From assembly GCA_037721775.1 (NCBI GenBank), contig JBBJOG010000012.1, positions 1,635 through 65,634 on the forward strand: a DNA stretch of 64,000 bases, given 5' to 3'. The position numbers were made by a program, and so were the translations under genes. Origin of the DNA: Sphingomicrobium sp. GTDB taxonomy: Bacteria > Pseudomonadota > Alphaproteobacteria > Sphingomonadales > Sphingomonadaceae. Under the pieces are notes generated by a model. That model had not been told where the DNA came from, made no database searches, and saw nothing but the letters and a program-made list of their open reading frames with translations. Shown piece after piece: positions 43,341 to 63,060 of the stretch. How positions within the stretch are numbered: the first letter of the stretch is position 1; each line of letters starts with the position of its first letter.

Positions 43341-43341
43341 C

Positions 43342-45337: not shown

Positions 45338-45417
45338 AGCTTAATCTCCTCTTGGGTCGATCCGATAGGTAGACTAGCTCTCGGCTCAAAGCAAGAGGTG
45401 TCCAACTCGGTTCGTCG

Positions 45418-45453
45418 CAAAAAGCTGCCCCCGGCCCGCTAATGCCGGGGCAG
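45418..45453 (-). terminator. Intrinsic terminator inside satellite
   Basis: Minus strand CTGCCCCGGC...GCCGGGGGCAG-CTTTTT. Confidence 0.7.
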
Positions 45454-45461
45454 TCACTGAG

Positions 45462-45749
45462 TTAGACGCCGTCGTCGTATCCTTCCGGGTCGTCGTCCAC
45501 GCCCCGGTCAGGGTCAGCAATCGGGCACCCAGGCCCCTCGCCGCCGTGCTGCATAAAGTCGTCCTCCGAAGCGTTTCCGTCCGCTTCGTCGCCGTTCAGC
45601 TCAACGTCGGTGTCGCCGTCCATTGCGTCGGCAAGGTCGATCGCAACGGCGATGAAGCCGCTAAGTTGTTTCCGGTCGAAGCGCGACAGGATCGCCATGA
45701 CGGCTGGCGCTGGCGGATATGCTGAGGGGAACTGTGCGACGTTACCCAT
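45462..45749 (-). CDS. Highly acidic small phage-type protein
   Basis: 21 D/E in last 58 residues. Confidence 0.7.
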   Translation of the reverse strand: MGNVAQFPSAYPPAPAVMAILSRFDRKQLSGFIAVAIDLADAMDGDTDVELNGDEADGNASEDDFMQHGGEGPGCPIADPDRGVDDDPEGYDDGV

Positions 45750-45933
45750 GACGCGCCTCCCGCTCGTGACGGAGAGAAATGACGCCGAAGTCGAACATTG
45801 CTTCCCAGGCGCGCAAATGCGCCTGGTTGCGAGGATCGAACGCCGGAACGTCAGCTCGCAGCGGACGCGGGCGGGGTGTGAACTTAACGAGATTGTCGGG
45901 GGCGGATTCCGCCCTATGGGTATTTGTAGCCAT
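45742..45933 (-). CDS. Hypothetical protein (63 aa)
   Basis: SD AGGAG before ATG; overlaps next gene. Confidence 0.7.
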   Translation of the reverse strand: MATNTHRAESAPDNLVKFTPRPRPLRADVPAFDPRNQAHLRAWEAMFDFGVISLRHEREARHG

Positions 45934-46003
45934 TGGTCGCTCCTAAATAGCGGTTGGTGGTTAGGCTCGGGTCGGGCGTTTCAGCACCCGGCTCGGGCCG
46001 TCT

Positions 46004-46050
46004 CGTTACCTAACGGACTTGCGTTAGTGACGTCAAGCCGTTAATAACGG
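46004..46050. promoter_or_regulatory. Divergent promoter/operator region
   Basis: Three CGTTA-N1-2-T(A/G)ACG palindromes; TTGCGT-N17-TAATAA (+) and TTGACG (-). Confidence 0.65.
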
Positions 46051-46053
46051 CGG

Positions 46054-46371
46054 ATGGCTTTATCCAATTCCGAACGACAGGCTCGCTACCGCCAGCGGCT
46101 CAAAGATGCCGCTCAGGGCGTAACGCCGGAAATGGTCGTCGCGGCGGCCCGAATCATTTTCGAAGTGGCAGCAGAAGAAAATCCATCGATTGGCAACTGG
46201 CAGGATTTTCTGATTAAATCGCGACAGAAAAGATACCGCACCAATTGGGAAGAGATGGTGCCGGACGATCCTAGGCCAAACGCTTACTGGTTTCTTGAAG
46301 GCGACGATCGCAGGCTAGTCGAAAGTGTTGCAGCCGTTATTAACGCTGCCACGGTTCCGCCGGCTGGCTAA
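46054..46371 (+). CDS. Putative satellite regulator (only plus-strand gene of the element)
   Basis: Basic N-terminal helix LSNSERQARYRQRLK; probably leaderless. Confidence 0.75.
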   Translation: MALSNSERQARYRQRLKDAAQGVTPEMVVAAARIIFEVAAEENPSIGNWQDFLIKSRQKRYRTNWEEMVPDDPRPNAYWFLEGDDRRLVESVAAVINAATVPPAG

Positions 46372-47981: not shown

Positions 47982-48399
47982 GTCGGTTGCCCTTTGAAAC
48001 TAACTCTATATTTTGGTTCGGGCGCGGTCTTACCCCACCAGCCCTGAGCGATTTTGCTCGATCAATAGTGGGAAAACTGTTCCCACTATTCCACGGGTGC
48101 GCCGGGTCGAGCGGCGTGCCATCGGGGTTGCATCCCTTCCTTGGCTTCGTGCTCTTGATCGCCCCGGCTTCCCCCCCGCGTGCCGTCTTCGCGCTGTGAC
48201 AGCCCGGACAATATGAGGCGAGGCCATCATGCCCAGGGAAGGCAGGCCCGCCCTCGCTCATAGCGTGCCGGTGATCCACGGTGTTCGCCATGCGATAGGG
48301 CTTGCCCATCGCTGTGCATCCTTCGCAGAATGGGAAGCGGGCAAGGTGCGCGGCCCTGAGCTTACGCCATGCGCCGGTGTTGTAAGGCCAGTCAGCCAT
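47971..48399 (-). CDS. HNH endonuclease (terminase-associated type)
   Basis: PFCEGC...TVDHR...YCPGCHSAKT; GCNPDGTPLDPAHPW tail. Confidence 0.9.
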   Translation of the reverse strand: MADWPYNTGAWRKLRAAHLARFPFCEGCTAMGKPYRMANTVDHRHAMSEGGPAFPGHDGLASYCPGCHSAKTARGGEAGAIKSTKPRKGCNPDGTPLDPAHPWNSGNSFPTIDRAKSLRAGGVRPRPNQNIELVSKGNRHGR

Positions 48400-48604
48400 G
48401 CTCAGGCCCCATCATTGCGATTAGGTGCCAATCCTTGAGCACGCTCGCTAGGATCGTGGCACGCGATCGGGAGACGCGGCTGCCGCGCAGCACGCCCTCG
48501 ATCTCCCTTGCCGTCATCGGGCGGGATACCGCGTCGAGCACCAGGATGGCCGTCTGTTTCTGTTCCGGCGTCATGTCCTCGATCAGCTCGTGCAGGTCAG
48601 CCAT
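48392..48604 (-). CDS. Hypothetical protein (70 aa)
   Basis: Overlaps flanking ORFs. Confidence 0.65.
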   Translation of the reverse strand: MADLHELIEDMTPEQKQTAILVLDAVSRPMTAREIEGVLRGSRVSRSRATILASVLKDWHLIAMMGPEHG

Positions 48605-48758
48605 GCGCCAGCCCCCTCAGCTCGCGGGAGTATAGATGTGCCGCTGGCGGCACATTTGGAGGTGTCTGGTGGATGTAGCGTTCCGGGTTGCTCCAATCGG
48701 GCGATAGCCGTCCGATCTCGCGGGCAAGGTCGAGCATCTTGGTATCCGGGGCCATCAT
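48597..48758 (-). CDS. Hypothetical protein (53 aa)
   Basis: Not in ORF track; MMAPDTKMLDLAREIGRLSPDWSNPERY...; ATG overlaps helicase stop. Confidence 0.55.
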   Translation of the reverse strand: MMAPDTKMLDLAREIGRLSPDWSNPERYIHQTPPNVPPAAHLYSRELRGLAHG

Positions 48759-50137
48759 GCCTGCCCCCAATCAATGTCATCTTCATCGGGGGCAGGCGGC
48801 CCAAGGGCCTGCCCCTTATTATACGTAGTATATAGGGGGGTTGGCGCACGCACCTTGGCGCAAGTGTTTTCAATGACTTGGCTAGGGGCATGGCGCGGGT
48901 CAGCGCAGGGGGTTGGCGCAGGGGTTAGCGCGCACTTTTCAGCCGCTTTGATGCCGACCGCAAAGTGCCGGTTTGGCAGTTTCCAAAGCTCCTGATTGAG
49001 CTGGATTCTGCCCAGGTGCAGCAGTCGCTCGAACGCGGCTTCGTATGCCTTGCGCGAGAATTGCCTGCCCTCGGTCATCTTCGCAAAGACGGTCGGGGCA
49101 TAGTTGACGCCGGGGTTATGAGAGACGGCGCGGTTGCTTTCCGTCGCCGCCGCCAAGCATCGCATGAAGGCTTCGTTTTCAGCCGACGCTTGAATGGTCA
49201 GCGCAATGTCCCTCGCTGCATCAGCGGGCAAGTCGGACTCGCGAACATAGGCCATCCGGTGCCAGCGGAACGCGAGCGTTTCACCGTTGCGGGCATAGTT
49301 GGATTTCTGGCGCGACAGCACTCTAGCGTCGGGATCGAGCACCGACCCGTCACTGTCCTTTGGCGTCTCCATGAACAGCCGGGAGCGAACCTGATTCTCC
49401 CAGGCCGTCGAGCCGGAGAAGCTATCGCCAGCCTTGTTCGGATGGCCGATGAACAGCACCGACCCCTTTACGGTCATGGCGAGCTTGTTAAGCAGGTTCA
49501 CGAATTGAGCGACCTCGTGCCGGATATTCTCGTTTCCCGCAAACAGGTGCGCCACGTTGTCGATGCCAATGAAACGGGCACCGATCGCTTGCGCCATGCC
49601 ATTGAGCGCCTGCCAGCGCGGCGTCGTCTGCATTGACGGGCTTGTGTTGCCGAACTCGTCTTTCACTTGGGCATGGCCGAACGTCGCCAGCTCAGTGTCG
49701 GTATGCCCCGCGAGCGAAACAAGGTGCAGCTTGCCGTCAAGCGCGCTCAGCGGCACGCCCAGCGCATCGCAGATGGCCTTCTGACGTTGATGCAGGGCAA
49801 TCTCGTCGTCTTCGCAGGTGATGTAGAGCGCGACCGATTGCCGCGTCTCCACGCCCATGAACGGCAAGCCCAGCGCGATGGCGGTGCATAGCTGTTGCGT
49901 TAGTAACGACTTGCCCGATGCGCCCGGGCCGGTGAGGTAGGTTGCTTGCCGCGCCGGTATCCAGTCGGTGAGCGCCCATTCCCGCTCAGGCGTCGGTTGC
50001 CCCTGCCATGTTGCCGGATTGAGCAACGGCATAGTTTTGCGCCATTGATCCACCATTGAACTGTTGCCGAAAGCAATGCTTTCCGCGGCCTGTTCGAACG
50101 GTGCCCATGCGTCATCATTGTTAGTTGGCTGGAGCAT
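48755..50137 (-). CDS. RepA-like (AAA_25/SF4-type) helicase
   Basis: YLTGPGASGKSLL, YITCEDD, IGIDN, IGHPNK, FSGSTAWEN..R; start probably ATG 50137. Confidence 0.88.
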   Translation of the reverse strand: MLQPTNNDDAWAPFEQAAESIAFGNSSMVDQWRKTMPLLNPATWQGQPTPEREWALTDWIPARQATYLTGPGASGKSLLTQQLCTAIALGLPFMGVETRQSVALYITCEDDEIALHQRQKAICDALGVPLSALDGKLHLVSLAGHTDTELATFGHAQVKDEFGNTSPSMQTTPRWQALNGMAQAIGARFIGIDNVAHLFAGNENIRHEVAQFVNLLNKLAMTVKGSVLFIGHPNKAGDSFSGSTAWENQVRSRLFMETPKDSDGSVLDPDARVLSRQKSNYARNGETLAFRWHRMAYVRESDLPADAARDIALTIQASAENEAFMRCLAAATESNRAVSHNPGVNYAPTVFAKMTEGRQFSRKAYEAAFERLLHLGRIQLNQELWKLPNRHFAVGIKAAEKCALTPAPTPCADPRHAPSQVIENTCAKVRAPTPLYTTYNKGQALGPPAPDEDDIDWGQA

Positions 50138-50453
50138 CGAAGCCTCCCATCCGGTCGAGCGTCGAGGCCGTGCAAAGCAGCCGGAGACAGACGTTCGCAG
50201 CATCCTCCAGGTTGCCCAGGTCCTGAAACCTAAAGACATAGGCCGCCGACACATCGAGAATGACTTGATGCAGGCTAAGCGCCTGGTCGGTATGCCCGCT
50301 CGGGTTCGACAGTGCGGTTGTCGCGAGGTCTCGCGAAGTCATCAGCCGCTTGCGGAGCTTCCTGATATTCTCAGGCTCATTGATGGGCACCAGGGCCGAC
50401 AGCGCCGCGTCGTATCGGTCGGGAACGGTGATCGCGGGGAAGGGCATATTCAT
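50121..50453 (-). CDS. Hypothetical protein (110 aa)
   Basis: Overlaps helicase start; SD GGGAGGG upstream. Confidence 0.65.
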   Translation of the reverse strand: MNMPFPAITVPDRYDAALSALVPINEPENIRKLRKRLMTSRDLATTALSNPSGHTDQALSLHQVILDVSAAYVFRFQDLGNLEDAANVCLRLLCTASTLDRMGGFDAPAN

Positions 50454-50669
50454 TGCGCTGCCCTCCCGCTTGCGGTATCATTCGCTTGCCTGCCCGCTGC
50501 TATGGAAAGGCCCGCCCTCGCATCGGTTGCCGCCGACGCGGGGGCTTCTTTTTGCCCCGGCGGAGCGCCTGAGCGGTTAGCCATTGGGAAAAGGTCGCGA
50601 GAGCAATTCGTGATCGACAGCGTGCCGGTTAGCCTTTGCTTGTCACTGTTTTCGTTAGACTGTTGCACC

Positions 50670-50685
50670 CCTCTTGGGTGCGCCA
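50670..50685 (+). repeat. attR core (16 bp)
   Basis: CCTCTTGGGTGCGCCA duplicate of the tRNA-Arg 3' end. Confidence 0.92.
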
Positions 50686-51773: not shown

Positions 51774-51972
51774 TCTGCCTCCGACCTGATGCCGGAAGGT
51801 TCAAAGCACGGCGCCGTCACCTGTTCCGCGACAGCAACGAAACCCGGCTAGGCGAGTTCGCTTTGCCTGCTCTGCTTGGTAGTTTTCTGCCGTGCCGCTT
51901 CGGTCTTGAGCACGATCTTGGTGCAGCAACCTCCATCGATGGAGGGTCAACAGCGGCACTGGCCGCCGGTTC

Positions 51973-53157
51973 CTACGCTTCCTGCCAAGTCTCGATCAGT
52001 TCGACGAAACGGGTCAGCCACGCGTTGGTCTGGTGGCCGTCGACGACGCGGTGGTCGATGGTCAGGGTGACGTAGGCCATCGGCCGGATGACGATCGCGT
52101 CGTCGCCATCGACCTCGCGCACCACGACGCGCTTTTCCAGCTTGCCGATGCCGAGGATCGCGGCTTGCCCCTGGTGCAGGATGATCGGGGAGGCCAGCAG
52201 GGATCCCGACACGCCGTGGTTGGAAATAGTGAAGCTTCCGCCCGACACGTCGGCGCCGGTCAGCTTGCCGTCGCGGGCACGGCTGGTGAGGTCGTCGAGC
52301 TTTGCGCCGATCTGCTCGAGGCTGAGCGAGCCCGCATCCTTGACCACCGGGACAATCAGCCCCTTTTCGCCGAGCGCGGTGCCGACGCCGATGTCGATCG
52401 TCGGCGCGACGGCGATTCGGTCCTCTTCCCAGCGCCCGTTGATCGCCGGCGCGGCGGCCATCGCTTCGGCCGCCGCCTTGACGATGTAAGCGGTATAGCT
52501 AAGCTTGGTGCCGCGCTCCTCAAGCGCCGCTTTGTGCGCGGCGACCGCCGAGAAATCGGCTTCGAACAAAGCGGTGACGTGCGGCGCCTCGGCCACCGCT
52601 CGGACCATGTTCTCGGCGATCTTGAGCCGCATCCGGTCATGCGGGATATCGGACGACGCGAACTTGCGCGGTTGCGCTGTGGCCGGCTCGCCGACGGTGA
52701 CCACGGTGGCATCGGCCACGGCGCGATCGACGTCCTCGCGGGTGATCCGCCCGCCCCGTCCGCTGCCCTGGATGCGCGCGGGGTCGATCCCATGCTGCAG
52801 GCAGGCTCGGCGAACCGAGGGGGAGAGGCGGTTCTCCGCCCCTCCGTTCCCCGGCGCAAGCCGGGGCCCAGGAGCGCCGGATGGCGCTGCTTGCGCATCG
52901 CCTTGGGCCCCGGCCTGCGCCGGGGAACGTGCATCGATCCGCCCCAACACCGCCCCGGGCACCGCATCCGCATCCGTATCCAGAACGATCTCGGCAAGTA
53001 CGCCGGCCGCCGGCGCCGGCACCTCCTGGGTCACCTTGTCGGTCTCCAGCTCGACCAAAGGATCGTTGAGAGCGACAGTGTCGCCGACCTGCTTGAGCCA
53101 AGCGCGAACGACGGCTTTGGTGCCCTCCTGCTCGTCGGGAACGCGAACCTCGATCAA
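51973..53157 (-). CDS. 2-oxoacid dehydrogenase E2 (dihydrolipoamide acyltransferase)
   Basis: Lipoyl ETDKV, PSBD (GSGRGGRITREDV), DHRVVDG. Confidence 0.95.
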   Translation of the reverse strand: MIEVRVPDEQEGTKAVVRAWLKQVGDTVALNDPLVELETDKVTQEVPAPAAGVLAEIVLDTDADAVPGAVLGRIDARSPAQAGAQGDAQAAPSGAPGPRLAPGNGGAENRLSPSVRRACLQHGIDPARIQGSGRGGRITREDVDRAVADATVVTVGEPATAQPRKFASSDIPHDRMRLKIAENMVRAVAEAPHVTALFEADFSAVAAHKAALEERGTKLSYTAYIVKAAAEAMAAAPAINGRWEEDRIAVAPTIDIGVGTALGEKGLIVPVVKDAGSLSLEQIGAKLDDLTSRARDGKLTGADVSGGSFTISNHGVSGSLLASPIILHQGQAAILGIGKLEKRVVVREVDGDDAIVIRPMAYVTLTIDHRVVDGHQTNAWLTRFVELIETWQEA

Positions 53158-53160
53158 CGC

Positions 53161-55212
53161 CTAAAACCCCACCAGCCGGTCGATCTCGGCGCGGATTTTT
53201 GCGACCGACGGAAGCGCCCATTCGAGCAGCTTGGGGTGATGCGGGCTTGGGATGTCGGGCATCGTCACCCGCGCCACCGGAGCGTCGAGGTCGATGAAGG
53301 CTTCGTCGGCGACCACGGCGGCAATCTCGGCGCCGAAGCCGCCGGTGCGCAAATCCTCGTGGACAATGAGGCAGCGGCGGGTGCGGCGAACGCTGTCCAG
53401 CACCATGTCGCGGTCCCACGGCATAAGCGTGCGCAGGTCGATGACGTCGGCGCTTACGCCCTCGGCCGCCGCCTCGCAGCGCGGCACCATCGCTCCCCAA
53501 GTGACGATGGTGATCGAGTCGCCTTGCCTGGTCTTGTTGGCCAGACCAAACCGAAGCACACAATCCTCGCCGGGCCACGGCCGCCTCGCCCAGGCGTCGT
53601 CGAGCATCGCGCGATGCTCGAAGAAGATGACCGGATCGTTGCCGCGAAGCGCGGCCCGAAGCAGGCCGACCGCGTCCTCGGCGTTGGATGGGACAGCAAC
53701 CTTCCAGCCCGGGTTGTGAATGAACTCGACCTCGTTGGTCATGCTGTGCCACGGGTCGCCGCACTTGAAGAAGCCGCCCGGCACCCGAAGAACCATCGGC
53801 GCAGCGAAGCGGTTGTGGGTGCGCCAGCGCATCGTTCCGCAGTCGTGGATCTGCTCGGTCGCCGGCTCGGAATATTTGCGGAACTGGATTTCGGGCACCG
53901 GCATCAGCCCGGCGAGCGCCATTCCGACGGCGCGACCGACAATCCCTTCCTCGTTCAATGAGGTATCGAACACCCGGGCGCGGCCGAACTTGTCCTGAAG
54001 CCCGAGCGTAACCGCGTGGACCCCGCCCTTGGGCCCGACATCCTCGCCGAACACCAGCACGCGCGGGTTGGCCTCGAGCTCCTGCTCGAGTGTGCGGCGG
54101 ATCGCGGTGACCATGTTGATCCGCTGGCCCTCGCCGTTCGGCTCGCCAGTCGACGGTGGCGCCTGGTAGCCCGAGTTCCACAGGCCCCCGACCTGCTGCA
54201 GCTCGCCGTTCGAAAAGACATGCTCGGTAACCCGCTCGGGATCCGAAATTCCGCGCGACTCGGCTTGTGCCAGCGCCGCCGCGACTTCACGAGCGACCTC
54301 GCGCTCGACCTCCTCCCAGTCGCCGTCGGAAAGACCCGACTGCGCTTTCAGCCTGGGCAGCGGGTCGCGCGACCACTCGGCGGCGATCTCTTGCTCGCTC
54401 TTGTACGCCTGCGTGTCCTGGGCGCTGTGGCCCTCGAGCCTCGGCATCGTCAGCCGCAGGAGTGCAGGCGCGCGCTTTTCGCGTACATGCCGCGTGGCGT
54501 TCGCGATCAGCCGCGACGCCTCGACCGGGTCGGTGCCGTCGCCGCTGAAGATGGTCAGCCCGGCGAAGCCCGCGAGGTTGGCGGCGATGTCCTTGCCCGG
54601 CGTTTGATATTCGGACGGCACCGAGATGCCATAGCCATTGTCCTCAATATAAATTAACAGAGGCAATTGTTGCGTCGTAGCAATAGTTAGCGCTGACCAA
54701 AATCCACCGGTAGCGACGCTCGCGTCACCGCCCAGCACCAGCGCGATGGCGTCGTCCGGTCCCTCTTTCAGCACCTCGCTCTTGTAGACGATGGCCTGCG
54801 CCCAACCGGCCGCGGGCGTATATTGCGCGCCCACCCCGCCGCACATCGGCAGCGCGTGGGCGCCGCCCGGGTTCGGGTAATTGAACACGACGCCGATATC
54901 GCGGCCGTCCGAATAGCCGCCGGCCAGGCCCATGCCCGAGCCCAATGCATCGGCCAGCTGAACGCCAAGCGCCAGCAACAGCGGTCGCGATCGGTAATAG
55001 CCGCAGGCCGCATCGCCGTCCCTGAGCTGCATGCCCAGCATCACCTGCGCCATGTCGTGGCCGCGCGCGGAAAATTGGTAGAGCACCTTTTTCGCCGGGA
55101 CGAGCTCCTGCTCCTCCAGCCGGTCGAGCTCGCGGCTGGTCAGCACCAGCCGAACCACCTGCCGCCAGTCGAGATCGGCCTGCGCTACCCGGCCCGGATT
55201 CCGATCAGCCAT
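53161..55212 (-). CDS. 2-oxoacid dehydrogenase E1, fused alpha/beta
   Basis: TPP motif GGDASV...IEDNGYGIS; beta half VFGEDVG, DTSLNE; start ATG 55212 overlaps aminotransferase stop. Confidence 0.93.
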   Translation of the reverse strand: MADRNPGRVAQADLDWRQVVRLVLTSRELDRLEEQELVPAKKVLYQFSARGHDMAQVMLGMQLRDGDAACGYYRSRPLLLALGVQLADALGSGMGLAGGYSDGRDIGVVFNYPNPGGAHALPMCGGVGAQYTPAAGWAQAIVYKSEVLKEGPDDAIALVLGGDASVATGGFWSALTIATTQQLPLLIYIEDNGYGISVPSEYQTPGKDIAANLAGFAGLTIFSGDGTDPVEASRLIANATRHVREKRAPALLRLTMPRLEGHSAQDTQAYKSEQEIAAEWSRDPLPRLKAQSGLSDGDWEEVEREVAREVAAALAQAESRGISDPERVTEHVFSNGELQQVGGLWNSGYQAPPSTGEPNGEGQRINMVTAIRRTLEQELEANPRVLVFGEDVGPKGGVHAVTLGLQDKFGRARVFDTSLNEEGIVGRAVGMALAGLMPVPEIQFRKYSEPATEQIHDCGTMRWRTHNRFAAPMVLRVPGGFFKCGDPWHSMTNEVEFIHNPGWKVAVPSNAEDAVGLLRAALRGNDPVIFFEHRAMLDDAWARRPWPGEDCVLRFGLANKTRQGDSITIVTWGAMVPRCEAAAEGVSADVIDLRTLMPWDRDMVLDSVRRTRRCLIVHEDLRTGGFGAEIAAVVADEAFIDLDAPVARVTMPDIPSPHHPKLLEWALPSVAKIRAEIDRLVGF

Positions 55213-56422
55213 CCATCGCGTCCACGATCGCAGCGGTGAATCGGTCGACCGCCTCGTCGGACATGCCGACGACGTTGAACCGCCCGCTGTCGGCCATGTA
55301 GATGGCGTGGCTGTCACGAAGCTTGAACACCTGCTCCTTGGCCAGCGGCAGCATCGAGAACATGCCGAACTGGCGGCCGATGAAGCCAAGCCGCGGGTCG
55401 GCGGCGGCGACTCGCCGGCGAACCGCGTTGATCCGGTCGCGCATCGCGGCGAGCTCGACTAGCCAGTCGGCGCTTAGCTTCGGGTCGTCGAGGATGATCC
55501 GCACCGCGGCGGCGCCATGGTCGGGCGGCATCGACCACATCTCGCGCGCCCGCTGGGCGGCATGGGCCATCGCGGTCGCCGTCGATTGCGCGGAGCCGGT
55601 CTTCACGAACAGCGATCCGACGCGGTCGCGATAGACGCTGAAATTCTTGTCGCAGCTCTGCGCGATAACGACCTCGTCGCACGCCTCGAGCAGCATCCGA
55701 ACGCCGGCCGCGTCCTCGTCGATGCCGCGAGCGAACCCCTGATAGGCGATATCGATGAACGGGATCAGCCCGGTCTGCGACACCACGCTGGTCACTTCGC
55801 GCCACTGCTCCTCGCTCAAATCGGCGCCGGTCGGGTTGTGGCAGCAGCCATGCAGCAAGGCGACGTCGCCCCGCCTTGCCGAGCGCAACGTGGCGATCAT
55901 CTCATCGAAGCGGATCGCCGCCTGGCCGCGCTCGTAATAAGGAAAGTCGACCTGTTCGAGCCCGACCGCGCGGATGATCGGCGGATGGTTGGGCCAGGTC
56001 GGCGTCCCGACCAGCACCCGGGCCTGGCGGTTGGCGGTGGCGATCAGCTCGAAGCCGAGACGAAGCGCGCCGCAGCCGCCGGGCGTGTGCAACCCGGCGA
56101 TTCGATCGTCGTCGGCGTACGGCCCAAGCAGGATCGGGCGAAGCAAGTCGGTGAAACGCTTGTCGCCGCCGGTGCCGAGATAGGCCTTGGTCGACTGGGT
56201 CTCGAGCAAGCGCCGCTCAGCCTCCTTCACCACCTTGAGGATCGGCGTGTTGCCGGCGCCGTCGCGGAATACGCCGACCCCGACGTCGATCTTGTCGGGC
56301 CGCGGGTCGGCGCCGCACAGCGCGATCAGCTGCAGCAGCGAATCGCTGACGACCGGCGGTAGATCGGCAAGCCCCCCGGTTCTTGACGAGTTTTGGGCGT
56401 GCACCTCGGTTTCACTCTGCAT
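55205..56422 (-). CDS. tyrB: Aromatic/aspartate aminotransferase (AspC/TyrB type)
   Basis: KIDVGVGVF, HGCCHNPTG, DIAYQGF, SCDKNFSVYRDRVG, SGRFN. Confidence 0.9.
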   Translation of the reverse strand: MQSETEVHAQNSSRTGGLADLPPVVSDSLLQLIALCGADPRPDKIDVGVGVFRDGAGNTPILKVVKEAERRLLETQSTKAYLGTGGDKRFTDLLRPILLGPYADDDRIAGLHTPGGCGALRLGFELIATANRQARVLVGTPTWPNHPPIIRAVGLEQVDFPYYERGQAAIRFDEMIATLRSARRGDVALLHGCCHNPTGADLSEEQWREVTSVVSQTGLIPFIDIAYQGFARGIDEDAAGVRMLLEACDEVVIAQSCDKNFSVYRDRVGSLFVKTGSAQSTATAMAHAAQRAREMWSMPPDHGAAAVRIILDDPKLSADWLVELAAMRDRINAVRRRVAAADPRLGFIGRQFGMFSMLPLAKEQVFKLRDSHAIYMADSGRFNVVGMSDEAVDRFTAAIVDAMDG

Positions 56423-56441
56423 GGACGTGCGATTAGCGAAC

Positions 56442-57515
56442 TCAGGCGTCGTAATCCACCGCCACCCCGTCGCCCGCGGGTACCGACTGGCAGGTCAGCA
56501 CGTACCCCGCCTCGACCTCCTCGTCGGTGAGCCCGTAGCGGGCCGCCATCTCGACCTTTCCGCCGGTCACCTTGGCGCGGCAGGTGGCGCACACCCCCGC
56601 CTTGCAGGCGAACGGCGCCGGCAGCCCCGCCTCGCGCGCGCTGTCGAGGATATTGGCTTGGGTGAACTCGACCCGGCGGGTACGGCCGTCGAGCGTAACC
56701 GACATCATGATCCCGGCCGCCTTGCTTTGCAGCTCGGCCATTTCCCGCACCAAAGATTCGGGCGGCCGGTCGGCGGTGAACCGCTCGATATGGATTCGCT
56801 CGCGCTCGACTCCGCGATCGGTGAGCGCGGCTTCGGCAGCGTCCATCATCGGCCCGGGCCCGCAGATGAACCAGCCGTCGACCTCGCCTGGATCGCCGAT
56901 CAGATGCTCGAGCGCTTGCGTGCAGCGCGTTCGGTCGAGCATGCCGTTGAACAGGTCGACGTCGCCTTCTTCCTCGGCGAGGAAATGGTAAAGCTCCAGC
57001 CGCCCCATGTGGCGGTCCTTGAGCATCGCCAGCTCTTCCAGAAAGATGATCGAGCCGCTGTCGCGATTGCCGTAAAGCAAGGTGAAGCGGCTCTCCGGCT
57101 CCTGTTTCAAGGTGGTCCGAAGCAACGACATGACGGGCGTGATCCCGGAGCCGCCTGCAATGCCGACCAGATGGCGGCGCGCGCCCGGCTCGAACGTCGT
57201 CGTGAAGCTACCGTGCGGCGGCAACACCTCGACCGTATTGCCGGCCTTGAGATTGTCGCCGACCCAGTTGGAAAATACGCCGCCGGCGATGCGTTTGACC
57301 GTCACCATCCAGTCCTGCTCGTCGGGCGCCGTGCACAGTGAGTAATTGCGGCGAACCTCCTCGCCGTCGATCTCGGCCTTGAGCGTCAGGTGCTGGCCCG
57401 CGCGAAACGCGAAACTGTCGCGAAGCACTTCGGGCATTTCGAAGCGGATCGAATTTGCTTCGGCGGTCTCCGGCACGATCTCAGCCACCCGCAGCGGGTA
57501 GAATCGAGCGCTCAC
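56442..57515 (-). CDS. paaE: Phenylacetyl-CoA epoxidase reductase subunit
   Basis: RAGQHLT, RRNYSLC, AGGSGITP, 2Fe-2S CKAGVCATC...LTCQ. Confidence 0.95.
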   Translation of the reverse strand: MSARFYPLRVAEIVPETAEANSIRFEMPEVLRDSFAFRAGQHLTLKAEIDGEEVRRNYSLCTAPDEQDWMVTVKRIAGGVFSNWVGDNLKAGNTVEVLPPHGSFTTTFEPGARRHLVGIAGGSGITPVMSLLRTTLKQEPESRFTLLYGNRDSGSIIFLEELAMLKDRHMGRLELYHFLAEEEGDVDLFNGMLDRTRCTQALEHLIGDPGEVDGWFICGPGPMMDAAEAALTDRGVERERIHIERFTADRPPESLVREMAELQSKAAGIMMSVTLDGRTRRVEFTQANILDSAREAGLPAPFACKAGVCATCRAKVTGGKVEMAARYGLTDEEVEAGYVLTCQSVPAGDGVAVDYDA

Positions 57516-58357
57516 CAGACCGCGTCGGGATAGGTGCGGGGCAGATATTGCATCGGCGCTAGGATATGGCCGAGATGCTCGCTGTGATGTCCGCGCCGGC
57601 CGCCGAGAATCGGCCGCTGGTCGGCCGGCGCGTCCAGCTTCGCATCCCGGAGCACGGCGGCAAGCGCGGAGCGATAGTCGTCTTCGAAGGCGCGCGGATC
57701 GGGCGCGGCGCCGCGCTCGATCAGCCCTTCTAAAACGTCATCAACCTCGAACAATTCGGGGATGAAGCGCCAGCACCAGTCTAGCCCGTCGGCCATCCGC
57801 CGCGCGCTCTCCTCGCTGCCGTCGCCGAGGCGGACCGTCCATTCCGACGCGAGATCGCGGTGGTAGGCGACTTCCTTGACTGCCTTGGCCGCGAACTCGC
57901 TCAGGAAGCGGTCGGTCGATGCGGTCAACCGCTGCAGCAACAGGTGCTGCCAGGTCGAATAGAGCAATTGCCGCGCGATCGTCCGGGCAAAGTCGCCATT
58001 GGGCTGCTCGACCAGCAGGCAATTGCGGAAATCGAGCACGTCGCGGCGGAAAGCAAGCGCGTCGCCGTCGCGTCCCTCGCCTTCGCACGCCCCCGCCTCA
58101 TTGAGCGCGTGGGTCGCCTGGCCGATCAGGTCGAGCGCGAAATTGGCGAGGCTGAGGTCGACCTCGAGCGCCGGTGCGTGCCCGCACCATTCGCTCAAGC
58201 GCTGGCCAAGGATCAGAGCGTCGTCGCCAAGCCGCAGAAGATAGTCGAAGCGCGCCCCATCGTGGAGTGAGTCGGCAGGCGCGTCGAACGCGCCGTGAGG
58301 CCGCGTGCGTGCAGCGATCGCCTCGTCTTCGGGCCGGATCGGCGGCAGCGACGGCAT
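57512..58357 (-). CDS. paaC: Phenylacetyl-CoA epoxidase subunit C
   Basis: LGDDALILGQRLSEWCGHAP, EQPNGDFA, KEVAYH, GRRGHHSEHLG. Confidence 0.96.
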   Translation of the reverse strand: MPSLPPIRPEDEAIAARTRPHGAFDAPADSLHDGARFDYLLRLGDDALILGQRLSEWCGHAPALEVDLSLANFALDLIGQATHALNEAGACEGEGRDGDALAFRRDVLDFRNCLLVEQPNGDFARTIARQLLYSTWQHLLLQRLTASTDRFLSEFAAKAVKEVAYHRDLASEWTVRLGDGSEESARRMADGLDWCWRFIPELFEVDDVLEGLIERGAAPDPRAFEDDYRSALAAVLRDAKLDAPADQRPILGGRRGHHSEHLGHILAPMQYLPRTYPDAVW

Positions 58358-58641
58358 CAGATGTGCTTCACCTCGTCCGGAATGTCGTAGAATGTCGGGT
58401 GGCGGTAGATCTTGTCGGCCGCCGGCTCGAACAGTTCGCCGGCTTCATCGGGGTCCGAAGCGGTGATCTCAGCCGAGCGCACCACCCACAGGCTCACCCC
58501 TTCCTGCCGCCGCGTATACGTGTCGCGCGCGTGCCGGATCGCGAGCTCTTCGTCAGGAGCATGAACGCTGCCAACGTGGCGATGCGAAAGACCGCCTTTG
58601 GTACGAATGAAAACTTCCCAGAGCGGCCAGTCACCGGTCAA
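58357..58641 (-). CDS. paaB: Phenylacetyl-CoA epoxidase subunit B
   Basis: [33 protein letters not shown]. Confidence 0.97.
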
Positions 58642-59618
58642 GCCGCCGCCCTTTCGCGACGCTTTGCCTCATGCGCGGCCGCCGCCTCGCGCACCCAGGC
58701 GCCGTCATCCCACGCGTTGCGACGCGCTTCCATCCGCTCCTTCGCGACAGGGCCCTCGCCCTTCACCACCGCGTAGAATTCGTCCCAGTCGACCGCGCCG
58801 AAATCGTAACCGCCTTTGCCCTCATTCCACTCGAGGTCCGCGTCGGGGACGGTGAGGTTCAGGAACTCCGCTTGCGGCACTGTGATGTCGACGAACTTCT
58901 GGCGAAGCTCGTCATTGGTCTCGCGCTTGATCCGCCAGCGCATCGATTGGGCGGTGTTGGGGCTGTCCTCGTCGGGCGGGCCGAACATCATCAGCGATGG
59001 CCACCACCAGCGGTTGAGCGCATCCTGCGCCATCCGCTTCTGCTCAGCCGTGCCATTGGCGAGCGCGATCATGATCTCATAGCCCTGGCGCTGGTGGAAG
59101 CTTTCTTCCTTGCACACGCGGACCATCGCTCGGGCATAGGGGCCGTAGCTGGTGCGCTGCAGCGGCACCTGGTTCATTATCGCGGCGCCGTCGACCAGCC
59201 AGCCGATCGCGCCGATGTCGGCCCAGGTCAGCGTCGGATAATTGAAGATGGTGCTGTACTTCGCCTTGCCGCTCAAGAGCGCCTCGGTCAGCTCGTCGCG
59301 GCCCACGCCCAGCGTCTCCGCCGCGCAATACAAATAGAGGCCGTGGCCGGCCTCGTCCTGTACCTTGGCCAGCAAGATCGCCTTGCGGCGAAGCGACGGC
59401 GCGCGGCCGATCCAGTTTCCCTCGGGCAGCATACCGACGATCTCGCTGTGCGCATGCTGGCTGATCTGCCGCATTAGGGTGCGGCGATAGGCCTCGGGCA
59501 TCCAGTCCTTGGGCTCGATGAACTCGTCGGCGGCAACCCGCGCCTCGAACGCCTCGAGAAGCTCGGGGTCCTCGAGGTTCTCGATCCTGGCAGTCTTCTG
59601 CAATTCGGTCGTGTACAT
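58638..59618 (-). CDS. paaA: Phenylacetyl-CoA epoxidase subunit A
   Basis: [28 protein letters not shown]; start 59618 or 59627. Confidence 0.98.
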
Positions 59619-59695
59619 AAGCCTCATGTAGCGATTGCCGCTTCCCGCTTCAAATGGCGGTGCAGCTAAGATTTTTCACGCGGAGGCGCGAACCA

Positions 59696-60118
59696 TTACA
59701 GAATCACCGCTCCGCCGATGGTGCGCGAGTAGCCGGTGAACTCGGCGATCGTCCGTCCGTCGTCGGTTCGAACCGCAACGCGCGTGACTCCGCTTCTTCC
59801 CTCCGCCGCCACTTCTTCGGCTTCCGCGACCAGCGTCTCGCCCGCTTCGGCGCTGCCGAGAAACACGATGGACGCCTGGGCGGCGACGGCGCGCTCGTTT
59901 CGGCCGTTGCAGACGTAAGCGAAAGCGGTGTCGGCGAGCGCGAAGACCATCCCGCCATGGGCGATGCGGTGACCGTTGAGCATGTCGTCGCGAAGCCGGA
60001 TCGAAATGCGAGCATAGCCGGCGCGCGCCTCGTCGATGCTTATCCCCCAAGCGGGCCCGGTGCCCTCGGCGGCGAGCATCTCGTGGGCAACCTTCGCCGC
60101 AAGTTCGTTTGCGTCCAC
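59696..60118 (-). CDS. paaI: Hydroxyphenylacetyl-CoA thioesterase
   Basis: MLNGHRIAHGGMVFALADTAFAYVCN; GTG 60118. Confidence 0.92.
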   Translation of the reverse strand: MDANELAAKVAHEMLAAEGTGPAWGISIDEARAGYARISIRLRDDMLNGHRIAHGGMVFALADTAFAYVCNGRNERAVAAQASIVFLGSAEAGETLVAEAEEVAAEGRSGVTRVAVRTDDGRTIAEFTGYSRTIGGAVIL

Positions 60119-60143
60119 GCCCTCTCCTTGGCAAAGCGAAGGC

Positions 60144-60929
60144 ATGGCTCACGAGACAATCGACTGCAAGGTTGAGGACGGCGTCGCCCGGATCACGCTC
60201 AACCGGCCGGACAACCTCAACAGCTTCAAGTCGGCGATGCACCAGGAGCTTCGTGACGCGCTGCGGTCCGTCGAGCAAAGCGCGCGGGTGATAGTCCTCA
60301 CCGGCGCCGGCCGAGGCTTTTGCGCGGGCCAGGATCTGGGCGAGCGCACAGTGTCCTCCGGCGGGGAGCCGGTCGATCTCGGAGCCACCGTCGAAGCCAC
60401 CTGGAACCCGCTGATCCGCGCGCTGGTGTCGATGCCGCAACCGGTGATCGCCCGGGTCAACGGCGTGGCGGCCGGGGCCGGCGTCAGCATCGCGCTGGCC
60501 TGCGACATCGCCATCGCCGCAAAGTCGGCGAAATTCGTCCAGAGCTTTTCGGCGATCGGCCTGATCCCCGACAGCGGCGGCAGCTGGGTGCTGCCGCGCC
60601 TCGTCGGCCAAGCCCGTGCGCTCGGTCTGGCGCTGACTGGCGAACCGTTGACGGCCGAAAAAGCCGCCGAATGGGGCCTGATCTGGAAATGCGTCGACGA
60701 CGACCAGCTCGACGTGGAAGTGGACGCGCTTGCCGCCAAACTGACGTCGCTGCCGCCGCTTGGGCTGGCCGCAATCAAGTCGATCATCCGCTCGACGTGG
60801 GGCCGGACGCTCTACCAGGAGCTCGACCTCCAGCGCGACGAGATGCGCCGATTGGGCTTCACCGACGACTATCGCGAAGGCGTCGCCGCTTTCCTGGAGA
60901 AGCGGCAAGCGAAGTTTACGGGCAAGTGA
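60144..60929 (+). CDS. paaG: 1,2-epoxyphenylacetyl-CoA isomerase
   Basis: Crotonase fold, GFCAGQDL, GLIPDSGG; ATG 60144. Confidence 0.93.
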   Translation: MAHETIDCKVEDGVARITLNRPDNLNSFKSAMHQELRDALRSVEQSARVIVLTGAGRGFCAGQDLGERTVSSGGEPVDLGATVEATWNPLIRALVSMPQPVIARVNGVAAGAGVSIALACDIAIAAKSAKFVQSFSAIGLIPDSGGSWVLPRLVGQARALGLALTGEPLTAEKAAEWGLIWKCVDDDQLDVEVDALAAKLTSLPPLGLAAIKSIIRSTWGRTLYQELDLQRDEMRRLGFTDDYREGVAAFLEKRQAKFTGK

Positions 60930-60937: not shown

Positions 60938-61014
60938 CGTTCGTCCTGAGCGAAGTCGAAGGGCGCTCGTGAGACGGTCGTGCCAACGTGCTTCGACTTC
61001 GCTCAGCACGAACG
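60938..61014. repeat. REP-like inverted repeat pair
   Basis: CGTTCGTCCTGAGCGAAGTCGAAG ... CTTCGACTTCGCTCAGCACGAACG. Confidence 0.85.
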
Positions 61015-61038
61015 GATGTTGGTAAGGACCAAGGCGAC

Positions 61039-63060
61039 GTGAAAACACCCCAGCTGCTCAATTATGCGCAGGACCGCTGGCTCCCCGGGGAGAGCGGGCT
61101 GTCAGAGATCGCCAGCGCGATCGACGGGGCACCGGTGGCGGTCACCGGCTCCGGCGGCATGGATTTCGCCGCCATGCTGCGCCACGCCCGCGAGGTCGGC
61201 GGCCCGGCGCTGCGCAAGATGACCTTCCACGAGCGCGCGCGGCTGTTGAAGGCGCTCGGCCAGGCGATCATGGCGCGCAAGGAGGAGCTGTACGAGCTCA
61301 ACTATCAGACCGGAGCGACCCGCAAGGACGGCTGGATCGACATCGAAGGCGGCGCCGGCACCCTCTTCTCTTTCTCCTCCAAGGGCCGCCGCGAGCTTCC
61401 CGACGCGCACGTCCTGCTCGACGGCGCGCTGGAGCCGCTGTCGAAAAGCGGCGCGTTCGTCGGCCAGCACATCTACACCCCGCTGCAGGGCGCCGCGCTG
61501 CACATCAACGCGTTCAACTTCCCGGTCTGGGGCATGCTCGAAAAGCTCGCCCCGGCGCTACTCGCGGGCGTTCCGGCGATCGTCAAGCCGGCGTCGGCGA
61601 CCGCCTATTTGGCCGAAGCGGCGTTCCGGGTGATGATCGAAAGCGGCGTGGTCCCCGACGGCGCGATCCAGCTGATCGTCGGCGGGGTCGGCGATGTGTT
61701 CGACCATCTGACCGGCCAGGACGTGGTCGGTTTCACCGGCTCGGCCTCGACCGCGCTCAAGCTTCGCTCCCACCCGACGGTGCTGCGCGAAAGCGTCAGG
61801 TTCGTCGCCGAGCAGGACAGCCTCAATGCGTCGGTGCTCGGACCCGACGCCGCGCCGGGGACGCCCGAGTTCGACCTGTTCGTGCGCGAAGTGGCGATCG
61901 AGATGACGGTCAAGGCGGGCCAGAAATGCACCGCGATCCGGCGAGCGCTCGCCCCGGCAGATTACATGGACGCACTCGAACAGGCGCTGCGCGAGCGGCT
62001 GGCCAAGACCAAGGTCGGCGACCCGCGCTCCGAAGACACACGCATGGGCGCTCTCGTCAGCACTGCGCAACGCGACGATGTCCGCGCGAAGATCGCCGAG
62101 CTGGAAGCGGCGGGAGCGCGCATCGTCGCCGGCGATCCCGACGCCGAGCCGCCGGTCAGGGGCGGCGCGTTCCTGTCGCCCGTGCTGCTGCGCACCGACC
62201 AGCCGTGGGTATGCGCGGCGCCGCACGACGTCGAACCGTTCGGCCCGGTGTCGACGATCATGCCCTATGCCGACCTCGGCGACGCCATCGCGCTGGCCAA
62301 CCGCGGGCGGGGCAGCCTGGTGCTGTCGATGTTCACCCATTCGCCCGAGGCAGCGCGCGACTTCGTGCTCGGCGCCGGCTCGTTCCACGGGCGGATGCTG
62401 GTGGTCGACCGCGACAATCACAAGGATTCCACCGGCCACGGCTCGCCGCTGCCGGTCCTCGTCCACGGCGGCCCCGGCCGCGCCGGCGGGAGCGAGGAGA
62501 TGGGCGGCGTGCGCGGCGTCAAGCATTACATGCAGCGAACCGCGATCCAGTCGTCGCCGGCGATGATCGCCGCAATCTCCAGCCAATATATGCCCGGCGC
62601 GCCCAAGCGCATGGTCGGCGTCCATCCGTTCCGCGGCAAGATGAGCGAGCTTGCCATCGGCGACACGTGGAAGACCGGCAGCCGAACCGTCAGCATCGCC
62701 GACATCGAGCAATTCGCCGACTTCACCGGCGACAAATTCTACGCCCACATGGACGAGGAAGCGGCCAGGGCCTCGCCGATCTTCGAGGGGCGGGTCGCCC
62801 ACGGCTATCTGGTGCTGTCGTTCGCCGCCGGGCTGTTCGTCGACCCCGATCCCGGCCCGGTGCTGGCCAACACGGGCCTCGAGAATTTGCGCTTCCTCAC
62901 CCCGCTCTACCCGGGCGATTCGATGCGCGTCGAGCTTTCCGTCCGCGCCAAATCGGTGAAGTCGGAGGACACCGGGCAGGTGCGCTGGGCCGTGGAAGTG
63001 TTCAATCAGGACGACGAGCTGGTCGCCACTTACGACCTCCTGACCGAGAACGTGCCTTAA
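61039..63060 (+). CDS. paaZ: Oxepin-CoA hydrolase / 3-oxo-5,6-dehydrosuberyl-CoA semialdehyde dehydrogenase
   Basis: ALDH domain ([14 protein letters not shown]) fused to MaoC domain ([13 protein letters not shown]); GTG 61039. Confidence 0.97.

Follow-up and report, generated by a model that had tools for sequence, protein, structure and literature searches.

A paa-linked fused E1 and E2 as a candidate phenylpyruvate dehydrogenase complex feeding phenylacetyl-CoA catabolism in Sphingomicrobium sp.

This work examines a paa locus of Sphingomicrobium sp. within a window of 64,000 nucleotides, which is the whole stretch of DNA that was analyzed (contig JBBJOG010000012.1). The genes paaI, paaA, paaB, paaC, and paaE, an aminotransferase gene, a fused E1 gene, and an E2 gene form a single tight block on the minus strand, all codirectional. 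The features of the locus are as follows:

59696..60145, minus strand: paaI, hydroxyphenylacetyl-CoA thioesterase (TIGR02286, 130 bits versus a cutoff of 119)
58638..59627, minus strand: paaA, phenylacetyl-CoA 1,2-epoxidase catalytic subunit (TIGR02156, 524 bits versus 280)
58357..58641, minus strand: paaB (TIGR02157, 147 bits versus 85)
57512..58357, minus strand: paaC (TIGR02158, 262 bits versus 133)
56442..57515, minus strand: paaE, FAD/NAD/2Fe-2S reductase (TIGR02160, 410 bits, slightly below the cutoff of 421; Pfam domains)
55205..56422, minus strand: TyrB/AspC-type aromatic amino acid aminotransferase (NF006719, 463 bits versus 377)
53161..55212, minus strand: fused E1 alpha/beta, 683 amino acids, candidate phenylpyruvate dehydrogenase E1 (PF00676, PF02779, and PF02780)
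51973..53157, minus strand: E2 dihydrolipoyl acyltransferase, 394 amino acids, candidate phenylacetyl-transferring enzyme (PF00364, PF02817, and PF00198)
51930..51967, minus strand: two short GC-rich hairpins directly 3' of the E2 stop (read from the sequence)
60144..60929, plus strand: paaG, epoxyphenylacetyl-CoA isomerase, divergent from paaI (TIGR02280, 369 bits versus 345)
60988..63060, plus strand: paaZ, oxepin-CoA hydrolase/semialdehyde dehydrogenase (TIGR02278, 985 bits versus 563)

An earlier note on this DNA described paaABCE, the aminotransferase, E1, and E2 as co-oriented with gaps of about 20 bp or less, and the junctions bear this out: overlaps of 1 to 4 nt occur at paaA/B, paaB/C, and paaC/E, paaE and the aminotransferase gene are spaced by 19 nt, the aminotransferase stop shares an 8-nt overlap with the E1 ATG (ATGGCTGA), and E2 starts with TTG 3 nt past the E1 stop. 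The paaI, paaG, and paaZ genes had been described as adjacent. Of these, paaG and paaZ are divergent on the plus strand, and paaI probably opens the paaABCE-aminotransferase-E1-E2 operon as its first cistron. We infer that the block from paaI through E2 is cotranscribed. The ATG codons of paaI and paaG overlap back to back (60143-60146), and an internal Met near 60079 may be the true paaI start. The hairpins beyond E2, which lack a T-run and raised no flag in a terminator scan, are a possible end of the operon as judged from their sequence. No paaD lies in the paaC-paaE interval. This gene, omitted from the paa set as first read, is not lost from the genome, as it sits with paaJ on a separate contig (C27).

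The host genome, at 98% completeness, lacks recognizable PaaK in the window and genome-wide, the best match to TIGR02155 scoring 28.9 bits versus a cutoff of 646. The search for paaK that had been proposed bears out its absence from the window and extends it to the genome, and tblastn gave no genome match for PaaX, PaaY, or a PaaR-like TetR regulator. The genome does encode pyruvate dehydrogenase (PDH) and 2-oxoglutarate dehydrogenase (OGDH), with SucB, PDH E2, and PdhB each above cutoff, as well as a split E1a/E1b/E2 set resembling the branched-chain 2-oxoacid dehydrogenase complex (BCKDH) on contig C15. The paa-linked E1/E2 is therefore supernumerary, constituting a fourth set. Provision of E3 in trans, as previously suggested, agrees with the presence of two LpdA-type E3 genes. 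Since PhhA-like, PhhB, HppD, and HmgA proteins are also encoded, Phe can also be degraded by way of homogentisate and does not strictly depend on the paa route.

The E1 protein is a fused thiamine diphosphate (ThDP)-dependent 2-oxoacid decarboxylase/dehydrogenase with alpha and beta parts in one chain, in which the GGD(163)...EDN(192) ThDP motif, GHS(262), E421/E422, and WHS(489) are conserved. Fold comparison gave matches to both E1 alpha and E1 beta subunits; the best PDB matches were 1qs0, 1um9, and 1dtw, and the beta part shares ∼40% identity with BCKDH. No NCBIfam equivalog cutoff was reached by E1, and sequence and fold comparison did not separate BCKDH-like from PDH-like specificity. 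E2 has lipoyl, E3-binding, and catalytic domains, and its translation carries the ETDKV lipoyl-lysine motif and the DHRVVDG catalytic motif; it fell under all equivalog cutoffs. Phylogenetic analysis, one of the checks proposed earlier, placed the paa-associated E1s in one clade (support, 99/97) separate from BCKDH, with the host's own BCKDH-like E1 in another clade (support, 100/100).

TyrB-type aminotransferases accept Phe, Tyr, and Trp, and the enzyme encoded here would convert Phe to phenylpyruvate. In 72/72 loci its gene immediately precedes E1, and E2 follows E1 in 65/65. The aminotransferase is, however, the single tblastn match of its type genome-wide, and its family occurs in 126 of the 201 genomes of the family sample irrespective of E1. 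A general, single-copy enzyme that is widespread without regard to E1 lends weaker support to a dedicated route. The earlier proposal of such a route is supported by the extra E1/E2 set, with the qualification that the aminotransferase has no dedicated paralogue.

Linkage of these genes is not peculiar to one genome. It is conserved across 80 species-level loci and recurs in other classes, far beyond what chance would give. In 31 of 33 loci with sufficient flanking sequence, paa genes lie within 10 kb, and paaE, the aminotransferase, and E1 are directly joined in 45 loci. In some genomes, PaaK directly adjoins the aminotransferase-E1-E2 module (G101, G191, L073, and L080). Outside the family, paaZ lies 4 kb from E1-E2 with a different class I/II aminotransferase in between (G604 and G893), or E1-E2 and a TynA-like amine oxidase gene are in convergent orientation (G365). 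In a 47%-GC genome from another class, the order is an Lrp gene, E1-E2, paaX-paaY, and paaFGHIJK-ABC(D)E-Z. Divergent Lrp regulators are found in many loci. In genus g65, E1-E2 lacks paa linkage and neighbors Lrp regulators and a dehydrogenase nearer to leucine dehydrogenase (LeuDH; 382 bits) than to Rhodococcus phenylalanine dehydrogenase (PheDH; 219 bits). E1-E2 in G064 and G160 adjoins a LeuDH-like gene bearing TAEDVG, which we take to be a LeuDH-type motif.

Within the family sample, 22 genomes carry E1 orthologues, 23 carry PaaA, and 21 carry both (Fisher P = 3.6e-25; at genus level, P = 2.6e-13). The co-occurrence check proposed earlier thus shows an association, which persists when the two genes are on different contigs or >200 kb apart: they are unlinked in at least 9 of the 21 shared genomes. 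Genera g84 and g21 agree in the presence or absence of E1 and PaaA. Among ∼800 sampled genomes from other families and classes, E1 was present in 5, all with PaaA. PaaA accompanies the E1 clade in 26 of 27 genomes, the single exception being an 86%-complete metagenome-assembled genome. PaaK is missing from 12 of the 23 PaaA-positive family genomes, all 12 of which have E1, and from all ten named isolates carrying the operon. No PaaA-positive genome lacked both PaaK and E1, a result that is not significant alone, as ∼1 would be expected by chance.

We consider it likely that E1/E2 is a lipoamide-dependent phenylpyruvate dehydrogenase complex and that the operon provides a ligase-independent entry into the paa pathway from Phe, yielding phenylacetyl-CoA. 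In this scheme, the TyrB-type aminotransferase would convert L-Phe to phenylpyruvate, which the fused E1 would decarboxylate with reductive phenylacetylation of the lipoyl-lysine of the adjacent E2. E2 would pass the phenylacetyl group to CoA, and one of the two LpdA-type E3s, docked via the E3-binding domain of E2, would reoxidize the lipoamide and form NADH. The resulting phenylacetyl-CoA would be broken down by PaaABC(D)E, PaaG, PaaZ, and PaaJ. If this is correct, entry from phenylpyruvate would gain NADH and spend no ATP, as expected from the general mechanism of such complexes. All in silico checks that were run agree with the phenylpyruvate dehydrogenase interpretation of the earlier note, which is supported at this level.

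It is unlikely, by comparison, that E1/E2 is a broad or aliphatic 2-oxoacid dehydrogenase, that is, a second BCKDH-like complex for the keto acids of Leu, Ile, Val, and Met whose proximity to paa reflects shared amino-acid-responsive regulation rather than channeling. The JGI label for E1 relatives (“2-oxoisovalerate dehydrogenase E1”), the place of BCKDH E1 beta among the best structural and sequence matches, the LeuDH-like neighbor in G064 and G160, and the many divergent Lrp regulators favor such a role; Lrp-type control is also usual for bkd operons. However, the host already has a split BCKDH-like operon, the paa-linked E1 falls outside the 100/100 clade of that operon's E1, and an aliphatic role predicts no pattern like the near-constant presence of PaaA, even unlinked, in E1-clade genomes.

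The co-occurring partner of E1 is the PaaABCE epoxidase, with phenylacetyl-CoA as its known substrate, which makes it improbable that E1/E2 is a general arylpyruvate dehydrogenase acting mainly on 4-hydroxyphenylpyruvate or indolepyruvate, with PaaI clearing arylacetyl-CoA unusable by PaaABCE. The breadth of the aminotransferase family (NF006719) and the position of paaI at the head of the operon are in keeping with that role. HppD and HmgA can be taken as a sign of active Tyr catabolism in the host, but they already constitute a dedicated 4-hydroxyphenylpyruvate route, and none of the examined loci has linked hydroxyphenylacetate or indoleacetate catabolic genes. We give very little weight to the view that phenylacetyl-CoA in PaaK-less strains comes from another enzyme (an unrecognized acyl-CoA ligase, a CoA-transferase, or a ferredoxin-dependent oxidoreductase), with E1/E2 unrelated or accessory. 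The host does have further adenylate-forming enzymes, including the weak PaaK-family match, and Ior/PPFOR-type enzymes were sought by a motif scan alone, which was negative but falls short of a rigorous exclusion. Such a source would nevertheless fail to explain why the E1 clade tracks PaaA almost perfectly across genomes, why E1 is translationally coupled into the paa operon, and why the E1-E2 pair heads a full set of clustered paa genes in a different class.

The closest precedent for a phenylpyruvate dehydrogenase complex, itself proposed, is PglB/PglC of Streptomyces pristinaespiralis, for which a “pyruvate dehydrogenase-like complex” converting phenylpyruvate to phenylacetyl-CoA has been suggested but, as far as stated, not assayed (PMC7089894). 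The earlier statement that no characterized complex of this kind is known therefore stands insofar as we found no reported enzyme assay of a phenylpyruvate dehydrogenase route in the literature, although this proposed precedent exists. By description, PglB/PglC is likewise an E1-type complex with identical proposed chemistry and product. It differs in being biosynthetic (L-phenylglycine, within the pristinamycin cluster) rather than catabolic, in having split alpha and beta subunits in an operon without E2 rather than a fused E1 plus E2, and in having PglA/D/E and nonribosomal peptide synthetase genes as neighbors rather than paa genes.

The BCKDH complexes (Pseudomonas putida bkd, Thermus thermophilus E1b, and human) share with the paa-linked enzyme a ThDP-dependent E1 alpha/beta, an E2 with lipoyl, peripheral subunit-binding, and catalytic domains, and a shared E3, and the Lrp-type regulators at many E1-E2 loci are a further likeness. 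In contrast, the alpha and beta parts are fused here in a 683-amino-acid chain, E1 belongs to a distinct, well-supported clade, its neighbors are paa genes and the gene for an aromatic aminotransferase, and its distribution across genomes tracks PaaA, not branched-chain catabolism. PaaK also feeds phenylacetyl-CoA to PaaABCDE but is an ATP-consuming, adenylate-forming ligase acting on free phenylacetate, whereas the proposed route begins at phenylpyruvate. Indolepyruvate/phenylpyruvate:ferredoxin oxidoreductases, named Ior1 in Phaeobacter and PPFOR in gut anaerobes, convert phenylpyruvate directly to phenylacetyl-CoA by oxidative decarboxylation. For Phaeobacter, a bypass of free phenylacetate has been reported (PMC7497051). 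Ior1 and PPFOR thus resemble the proposed complex in reaction, but they are unrelated iron-sulfur, ferredoxin-dependent enzymes without lipoamide, whereas the complex proposed here would be of the lipoamide/NAD+ type, fit for an aerobe.

The aminotransferase, fused E1, and E2 genes lie at the downstream end of a block of eight genes, all co-directional on the minus strand (51973-60145) and probably headed by paaI. The proposal under study is that Phe is converted through phenylpyruvate to phenylacetyl-CoA by this module, bypassing PaaK.

Features of the operon and of the divergent paa genes in the window
PaaI, PaaA, PaaB, and PaaC, minus strand: each above its curated NCBIfam cutoff
PaaE, minus strand: 410 bits, cutoff 421
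55205-56422, minus strand: TyrB/AspC-type "aromatic amino acid transaminase" (NF006719, 463 bits versus a cutoff of 377)
53161-55212, minus strand: E1, 683 aa, with E1 alpha domain PF00676 and E1 beta domains PF02779 and PF02780 in a single chain
51973-53157, minus strand: E2, 394 aa, with lipoyl (PF00364), E3-binding (PF02817), and catalytic (PF00198) domains
paaG and paaZ, plus strand, divergent from the operon: PaaG and PaaZ above cutoffs

The earlier note had described a tight paa-aminotransferase-E1-E2 block, and the gene calls bear this out: paa genes overlap by 1 to 4 nt, the gap between paaE and the aminotransferase gene is 19 nt, the stop codon of the latter overlaps the E1 ATG by 8 nt (ATGGCTGA), and only 3 nt separate the E1 stop codon from the E2 start. 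Given these co-directional genes, their junctions, and the divergent paaG and paaZ, the observation was correct. E1 and E2 both scored below the cutoffs of all equivalog models for PDH, OGDH, and the acetoin complex. At 60143-60146, the ATG codons of paaI (minus strand) and paaG (plus strand) stand back to back within a CATG, so that no room is left for a promoter between the two genes; the start of paaI is more likely an internal Met near 60079 than the annotated ATG. Neither the gap between paaI and paaA nor the paaI/paaG junction showed a PaaR-like palindrome, and promoter and terminator scans returned nothing beyond shuffled expectation. An island of phage head genes (portal, protease, capsid, terminase, HNH, and primase-like; 40282-50685) lies ∼1.3 kb away from the end of the operon's neighbor gene.

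The window is part of contig C3 of a 2.15-Mb assembly that is 98.4% complete and whose nearest named relatives are Sphingomicrobium and Sphingomonas. Both paaK and paaX, which the earlier note had reported as absent from the window, were not found in the rest of the genome either. In a profile search of the whole 98.4%-complete genome, the top TIGR02155 (PaaK) match reached 28.9 bits against a cutoff of 646.3, and a genome-wide tblastn search with a sphingomonad PaaK query gave no match at 1e-8; PaaX, PaaY, and a PaaR-like TetR were likewise not found in the genome. A scan of this genome for an Ior/PPFOR homologue, which would be an alternative source of phenylacetyl-CoA, was negative for the single N-terminal motif used. 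PaaD (157 versus a cutoff of 108) and the 3-oxoadipyl-CoA thiolase PaaJ/PcaF (700 versus 597) are encoded on contig C27, so paaD has not been lost but resides with paaJ elsewhere in the genome. PaaF and PaaH could be assigned to paralogues only tentatively. The C27 island (18557-23769; L101:8558-13769) places paaD and paaJ/pcaF beside hppD, phhB, a phhA-like gene (251 bits versus a cutoff of 265), and a flavin reductase gene; the epoxidase subunit PaaD is thus encoded apart from paaABCE and near genes of the homogentisate route. Since hppD, phhB, the phhA-like gene, and hmgA (on contig C19) are all in the genome, Phe and Tyr can also be routed through homogentisate, and use of Phe therefore does not depend on the paa route alone.

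Because the genome also holds SucB, PDH E2, and PdhB, each above its cutoff, and a separate split E1-alpha/E1-beta/E2 operon of the BCKDH type on contig C15, the window E1/E2 pair represents a fourth, supernumerary complex. Two LpdA-type E3 open reading frames with the CLNxGCIP(S/T)K redox motif are located on contigs C20 (after sucB) and C17, neither adjoining E1/E2. Together with the E3-binding domain in E2, these genes make the suggested supply of E3 in trans feasible. Across 22 sequences, the E1 ThDP/Mg motif (G161-G162-D163...E190-D191-N192), the alpha-loop G261-H262-S, and, in the beta part, E421/E422 and W488-H489-S vary little or not at all, and these motif residues align with the genome's own BCKDH-like beta subunit. 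Their roles were assigned by reference to His291-alpha and His146-beta' of human BCKDH. In the E2 translation, a lipoylation motif (ETDKV) and a catalytic motif (DHRVVDG) are both present. By domains and motifs, the candidate E1 and E2, with a trans-acting E3, would form a 2-oxoacid dehydrogenase complex of the heterotetramer type. An AlphaFold model of E1 (pLDDT 68, pTM 0.72, with low-scoring loops in the beta part) was matched by Foldseek to BCKDH and PDH E1 beta subunits (1qs0_B and 1w85_B) and to the Thermus E1 alpha subunit (1umb_C; TM 0.74). The predicted structure confirms the fold class, at a level at which Foldseek does not tell BCKDH-like from PDH-like specificity.

To survey relatives, one genome per GTDB species was scanned; 582 were returned, and the best 80 of these, at 74 to 87% identity, were examined. 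The earlier note had held that a linkage unique to this genome would count against its proposal, and the linkage is instead widely shared. Among these best 80 of 582, the aminotransferase gene lies immediately 5' of E1 in all 72 loci with enough flanking sequence, E2 lies immediately 3' of E1 in 65 of 65, and paaE, the aminotransferase gene, and E1 are joined as in the window in 45 loci. Within the same set, 31 of the 33 loci flanked by ≥8 kb on each side carry paa genes ≤10 kb away. In Allosphingosinicella-type loci, the triad forms a unit of its own, preceded by a divergently oriented Lrp regulator gene, and paaZ, paaG, or paaA is found some kilobases from it; the neighborhood is thus retained despite rearrangement. 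PaaK directly adjoins the module in two genomes (G101 and G191) and at two further loci (L073 and L080), where it can be regarded as a second "upper pathway" enzyme, an arrangement that we weighed in the interpretation.

For the phyletic pattern, E1, PaaA, and PaaK were each searched for in the same set of 201 genomes sampled from the GTDB family; E1 orthologues were counted if full length and ≥67% identical and PaaA if above its cutoff. The co-occurrence of E1 and PaaA is strong: E1 was found in 22 of the 201 genomes, PaaA in 23, and both together in 21, with none of the three proteins in 177. The one genome with E1 only is an 86%-complete MAG of 400 contigs. The association is significant by Fisher's test at the level of genomes (p = 3.6e-25) and of genera (p = 2.6e-13), and because E1 and PaaA are far apart or on separate contigs in at least nine genomes, it is not mere co-location. 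In each of two genera (g84 and g21), one member has both proteins and the other has neither. Among the 23 PaaA-positive family genomes, 9 carry both PaaK and E1, 2 carry PaaK only, 12 carry E1 only, and none lacks both; this zero count is suggestive yet falls short of significance when taken alone, because ∼1 such genome is expected by chance, and the statistical argument that PaaK and E1 are never both absent was dropped for that reason. The idea of a dedicated aminotransferase was rejected as well, the gene being the sole one of the TyrB type in the genome and its family being common without E1. The TyrB-type aminotransferase is present as a single copy in 126 of the 201 family genomes, with or without E1, and adjoins E1 in the genomes that carry it.

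Outside the family, the E1 clade is rare (3 of 400 genomes sampled from the phylum and 2 of 400 from the class), and all five of these genomes have PaaA and PaaK. A 47%-GC genome from another class shows the order Lrp, then E1 E2, then paaX paaY, then paaF G H I J K A B C (D) E Z. In genomes G604 and G893, E1-E2 lies 4 kb from paaZ, with a different class I/II aminotransferase gene, a cupin gene, and an Lrp gene in between. E1-E2 of G365 is convergent with a gene for a TynA-like copper primary-amine oxidase (L086:5496-7505; NF008559, 536 bits), the paa cluster being on another contig; this neighbor is another link of the module to phenylethylamine-type aromatic metabolism. In G297, E1-E2 has no linkage to paa.

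The limits of the E1 group were drawn from sequence databases and a maximum-likelihood tree. Only three full-length clusters above 45% identity were retrieved from 1.8 billion 50%-identity representatives. In the tree, all paa-associated E1s, including those of two other classes, are monophyletic (99/97), and the BCKDH-like E1 of this genome is placed on the other side of the tree, in a 100/100 clade; the phylogenetic check proposed earlier thus came out in favor of a separate group. The outgroups differ in context: P0121, P0124, and P0125 are solitary, without E2 or paa genes, and P0140 and P0148 are found among lipoyl-only proteins and ATP-grasp and racemase genes. Functional inference was therefore confined to the clade at ∼57% identity or more, and its extension to E1 relatives at 46 to 55% identity, which have neither paa linkage nor an adjoining E2, was rejected. 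P0140 and P0148 form the sister group of the E1 clade at 33 to 36% identity (L108:593-6865 and L111:411-6079). Their loci encode one or two 286-aa proteins with a lipoyl domain and no acyltransferase domain, in addition to RimK/ATP-grasp ligases, alanine and Asp/Glu racemases, a D-Ala-D-Ala ligase, and a cupin_8 protein, and constitute a different E1-based system. Among distant fused-E1 relatives (e.g., P0141, P0177, P0188, P0193, P0196, and P0234), many are 1030 to 1200 aa long and one is 1942 aa; the ∼400 to 500 additional residues, N- or C-terminal to the E1 part, possibly mark E1-E2 or other fusions.

With the supernumerary E1/E2, the absence of PaaK, the tracking of PaaA by the E1 clade in different families and classes, and the placement of PaaK beside the module, a phenylpyruvate dehydrogenase is the best explanation, and we consider it likely that E1/E2 forms such a complex and makes phenylacetyl-CoA. 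The paa pathway itself involves no 2-oxoacid intermediate, and phenylpyruvate is the only 2-oxoacid whose oxidative decarboxylation gives the PaaABCE substrate. Phe would be transaminated by the product of the gene translationally coupled to E1, and the resulting phenylpyruvate would be converted by the E1/E2 complex to phenylacetyl-CoA, feeding PaaABCE. Judging from the general mechanism of these complexes, ATP-dependent activation would be avoided relative to the sequence of decarboxylase, aldehyde dehydrogenase, and ligase. The route put forward in the earlier note is accordingly supported by strong comparative genomic evidence, and the E1 group is a distinct 2-oxoacid dehydrogenase clade for which both a new substrate and a new role in the pathway are predicted. 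With somewhat less confidence, we favor the broader view that the fused-E1/E2 clade serves specifically as a phenylpyruvate dehydrogenase dependent on lipoamide and NAD+ and has replaced PaaK in one lineage of small-genome sphingomonads, leaving a Phe-only paa pathway with no free phenylacetate and a saving of ATP.

An aliphatic or broad-specificity 2-oxoacid dehydrogenase, which we regard as unlikely, gains some weight from genus g65 (genomes G064, L090:8885-14770, and G160, L091), where E1-E2 is found apart from paa genes and has as neighbors three Lrp/AsnC regulator genes and a gene of the Leu/Phe dehydrogenase family. The product of that gene scores 382 bits to a leucine dehydrogenase in the PDB versus 219 bits to Rhodococcus PheDH and carries a TAEDVG motif, which we take to be of the LeuDH type; it may replace the aminotransferase or may point to a wider substrate range. 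Such a role, however, leaves the PaaA-bound distribution of E1 unexplained. A general role of E1/E2 on arylpyruvates seems less likely still, and a source of phenylacetyl-CoA unrelated to the module is the least probable reading.

The aerobic paa pathway is present in a sizeable share of bacteria, with phenylacetate and PaaK as the only textbook entry, and the described Phe routes run either through a decarboxylase followed by aldehyde dehydrogenase and ligase steps or through ferredoxin oxidoreductases, which are oxygen sensitive. A phenylpyruvate dehydrogenase, if true, would add a physiological class beside PDH, OGDH, BCKDH, the acetoin complex, and the 2-oxoadipate complex, provide an oxygen-compatible, ATP-free, and NADH-yielding entry to the paa pathway, and explain how this pathway is fed in PaaK-less genomes. 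It would also call for correction of the common "2-oxoisovalerate dehydrogenase" and "pyruvate dehydrogenase" annotations of these genes and offer an engineering part for phenylacetyl-CoA products (tropones, phenylglycine, and penicillin G side-chain supply). The hypothesis is directly testable because the PaaK-less operon is carried by ten named cultured isolates: S. agri, S. segetis, S. daechungensis, Sphingomonas sp. CPCC 101669, S. cremea, S. edaphi, S. alba, Sphingomicrobium nitratireducens, S. lutaoense, and S. astaxanthinifaciens.

Compared to BCKDH, the window E1 is not orthologous, falling in a separate clade with ∼40% identity in the beta part to the genome's own BCKDH-like E1. Moreover, the window E1/E2 is not the sole BCKDH-type set in the genome and is set among paa genes; the LeuDH-like neighbor in g65 is the only hint toward a branched-chain context. 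The enzyme of the Phaeobacter bypass is presumably the ferredoxin-dependent Ior. That bypass leads directly from Phe to phenylacetyl-CoA (PMC7497051). The earlier note knew of no characterized dedicated complex, and our full-text literature search likewise found no description of a lipoamide-dependent phenylpyruvate dehydrogenase feeding the paa pathway; the Phaeobacter bypass and PglB/PglC were the sole precedents that it turned up. As a caveat on novelty, the GapMind rules for phenylalanine reportedly list a two-subunit "phenylpyruvate decarboxylase (PPDC alpha/beta)." No such entry was found in the text of PMC9007349 or in the supplements searched. Of the known systems, PglB/PglC of S. pristinaespiralis comes closest: for this "pyruvate dehydrogenase-like complex," conversion of phenylpyruvate to phenylacetyl-CoA has been suggested as a step in L-phenylglycine biosynthesis (PMC7089894). 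By its literature description, the proposed conversion is the same as that of the window E1/E2; PglB/PglC, however, is encoded in a phenylglycine operon (pglA, pglD, pglE, and an NRPS), whereas the window E1/E2 is encoded among paa catabolic genes.
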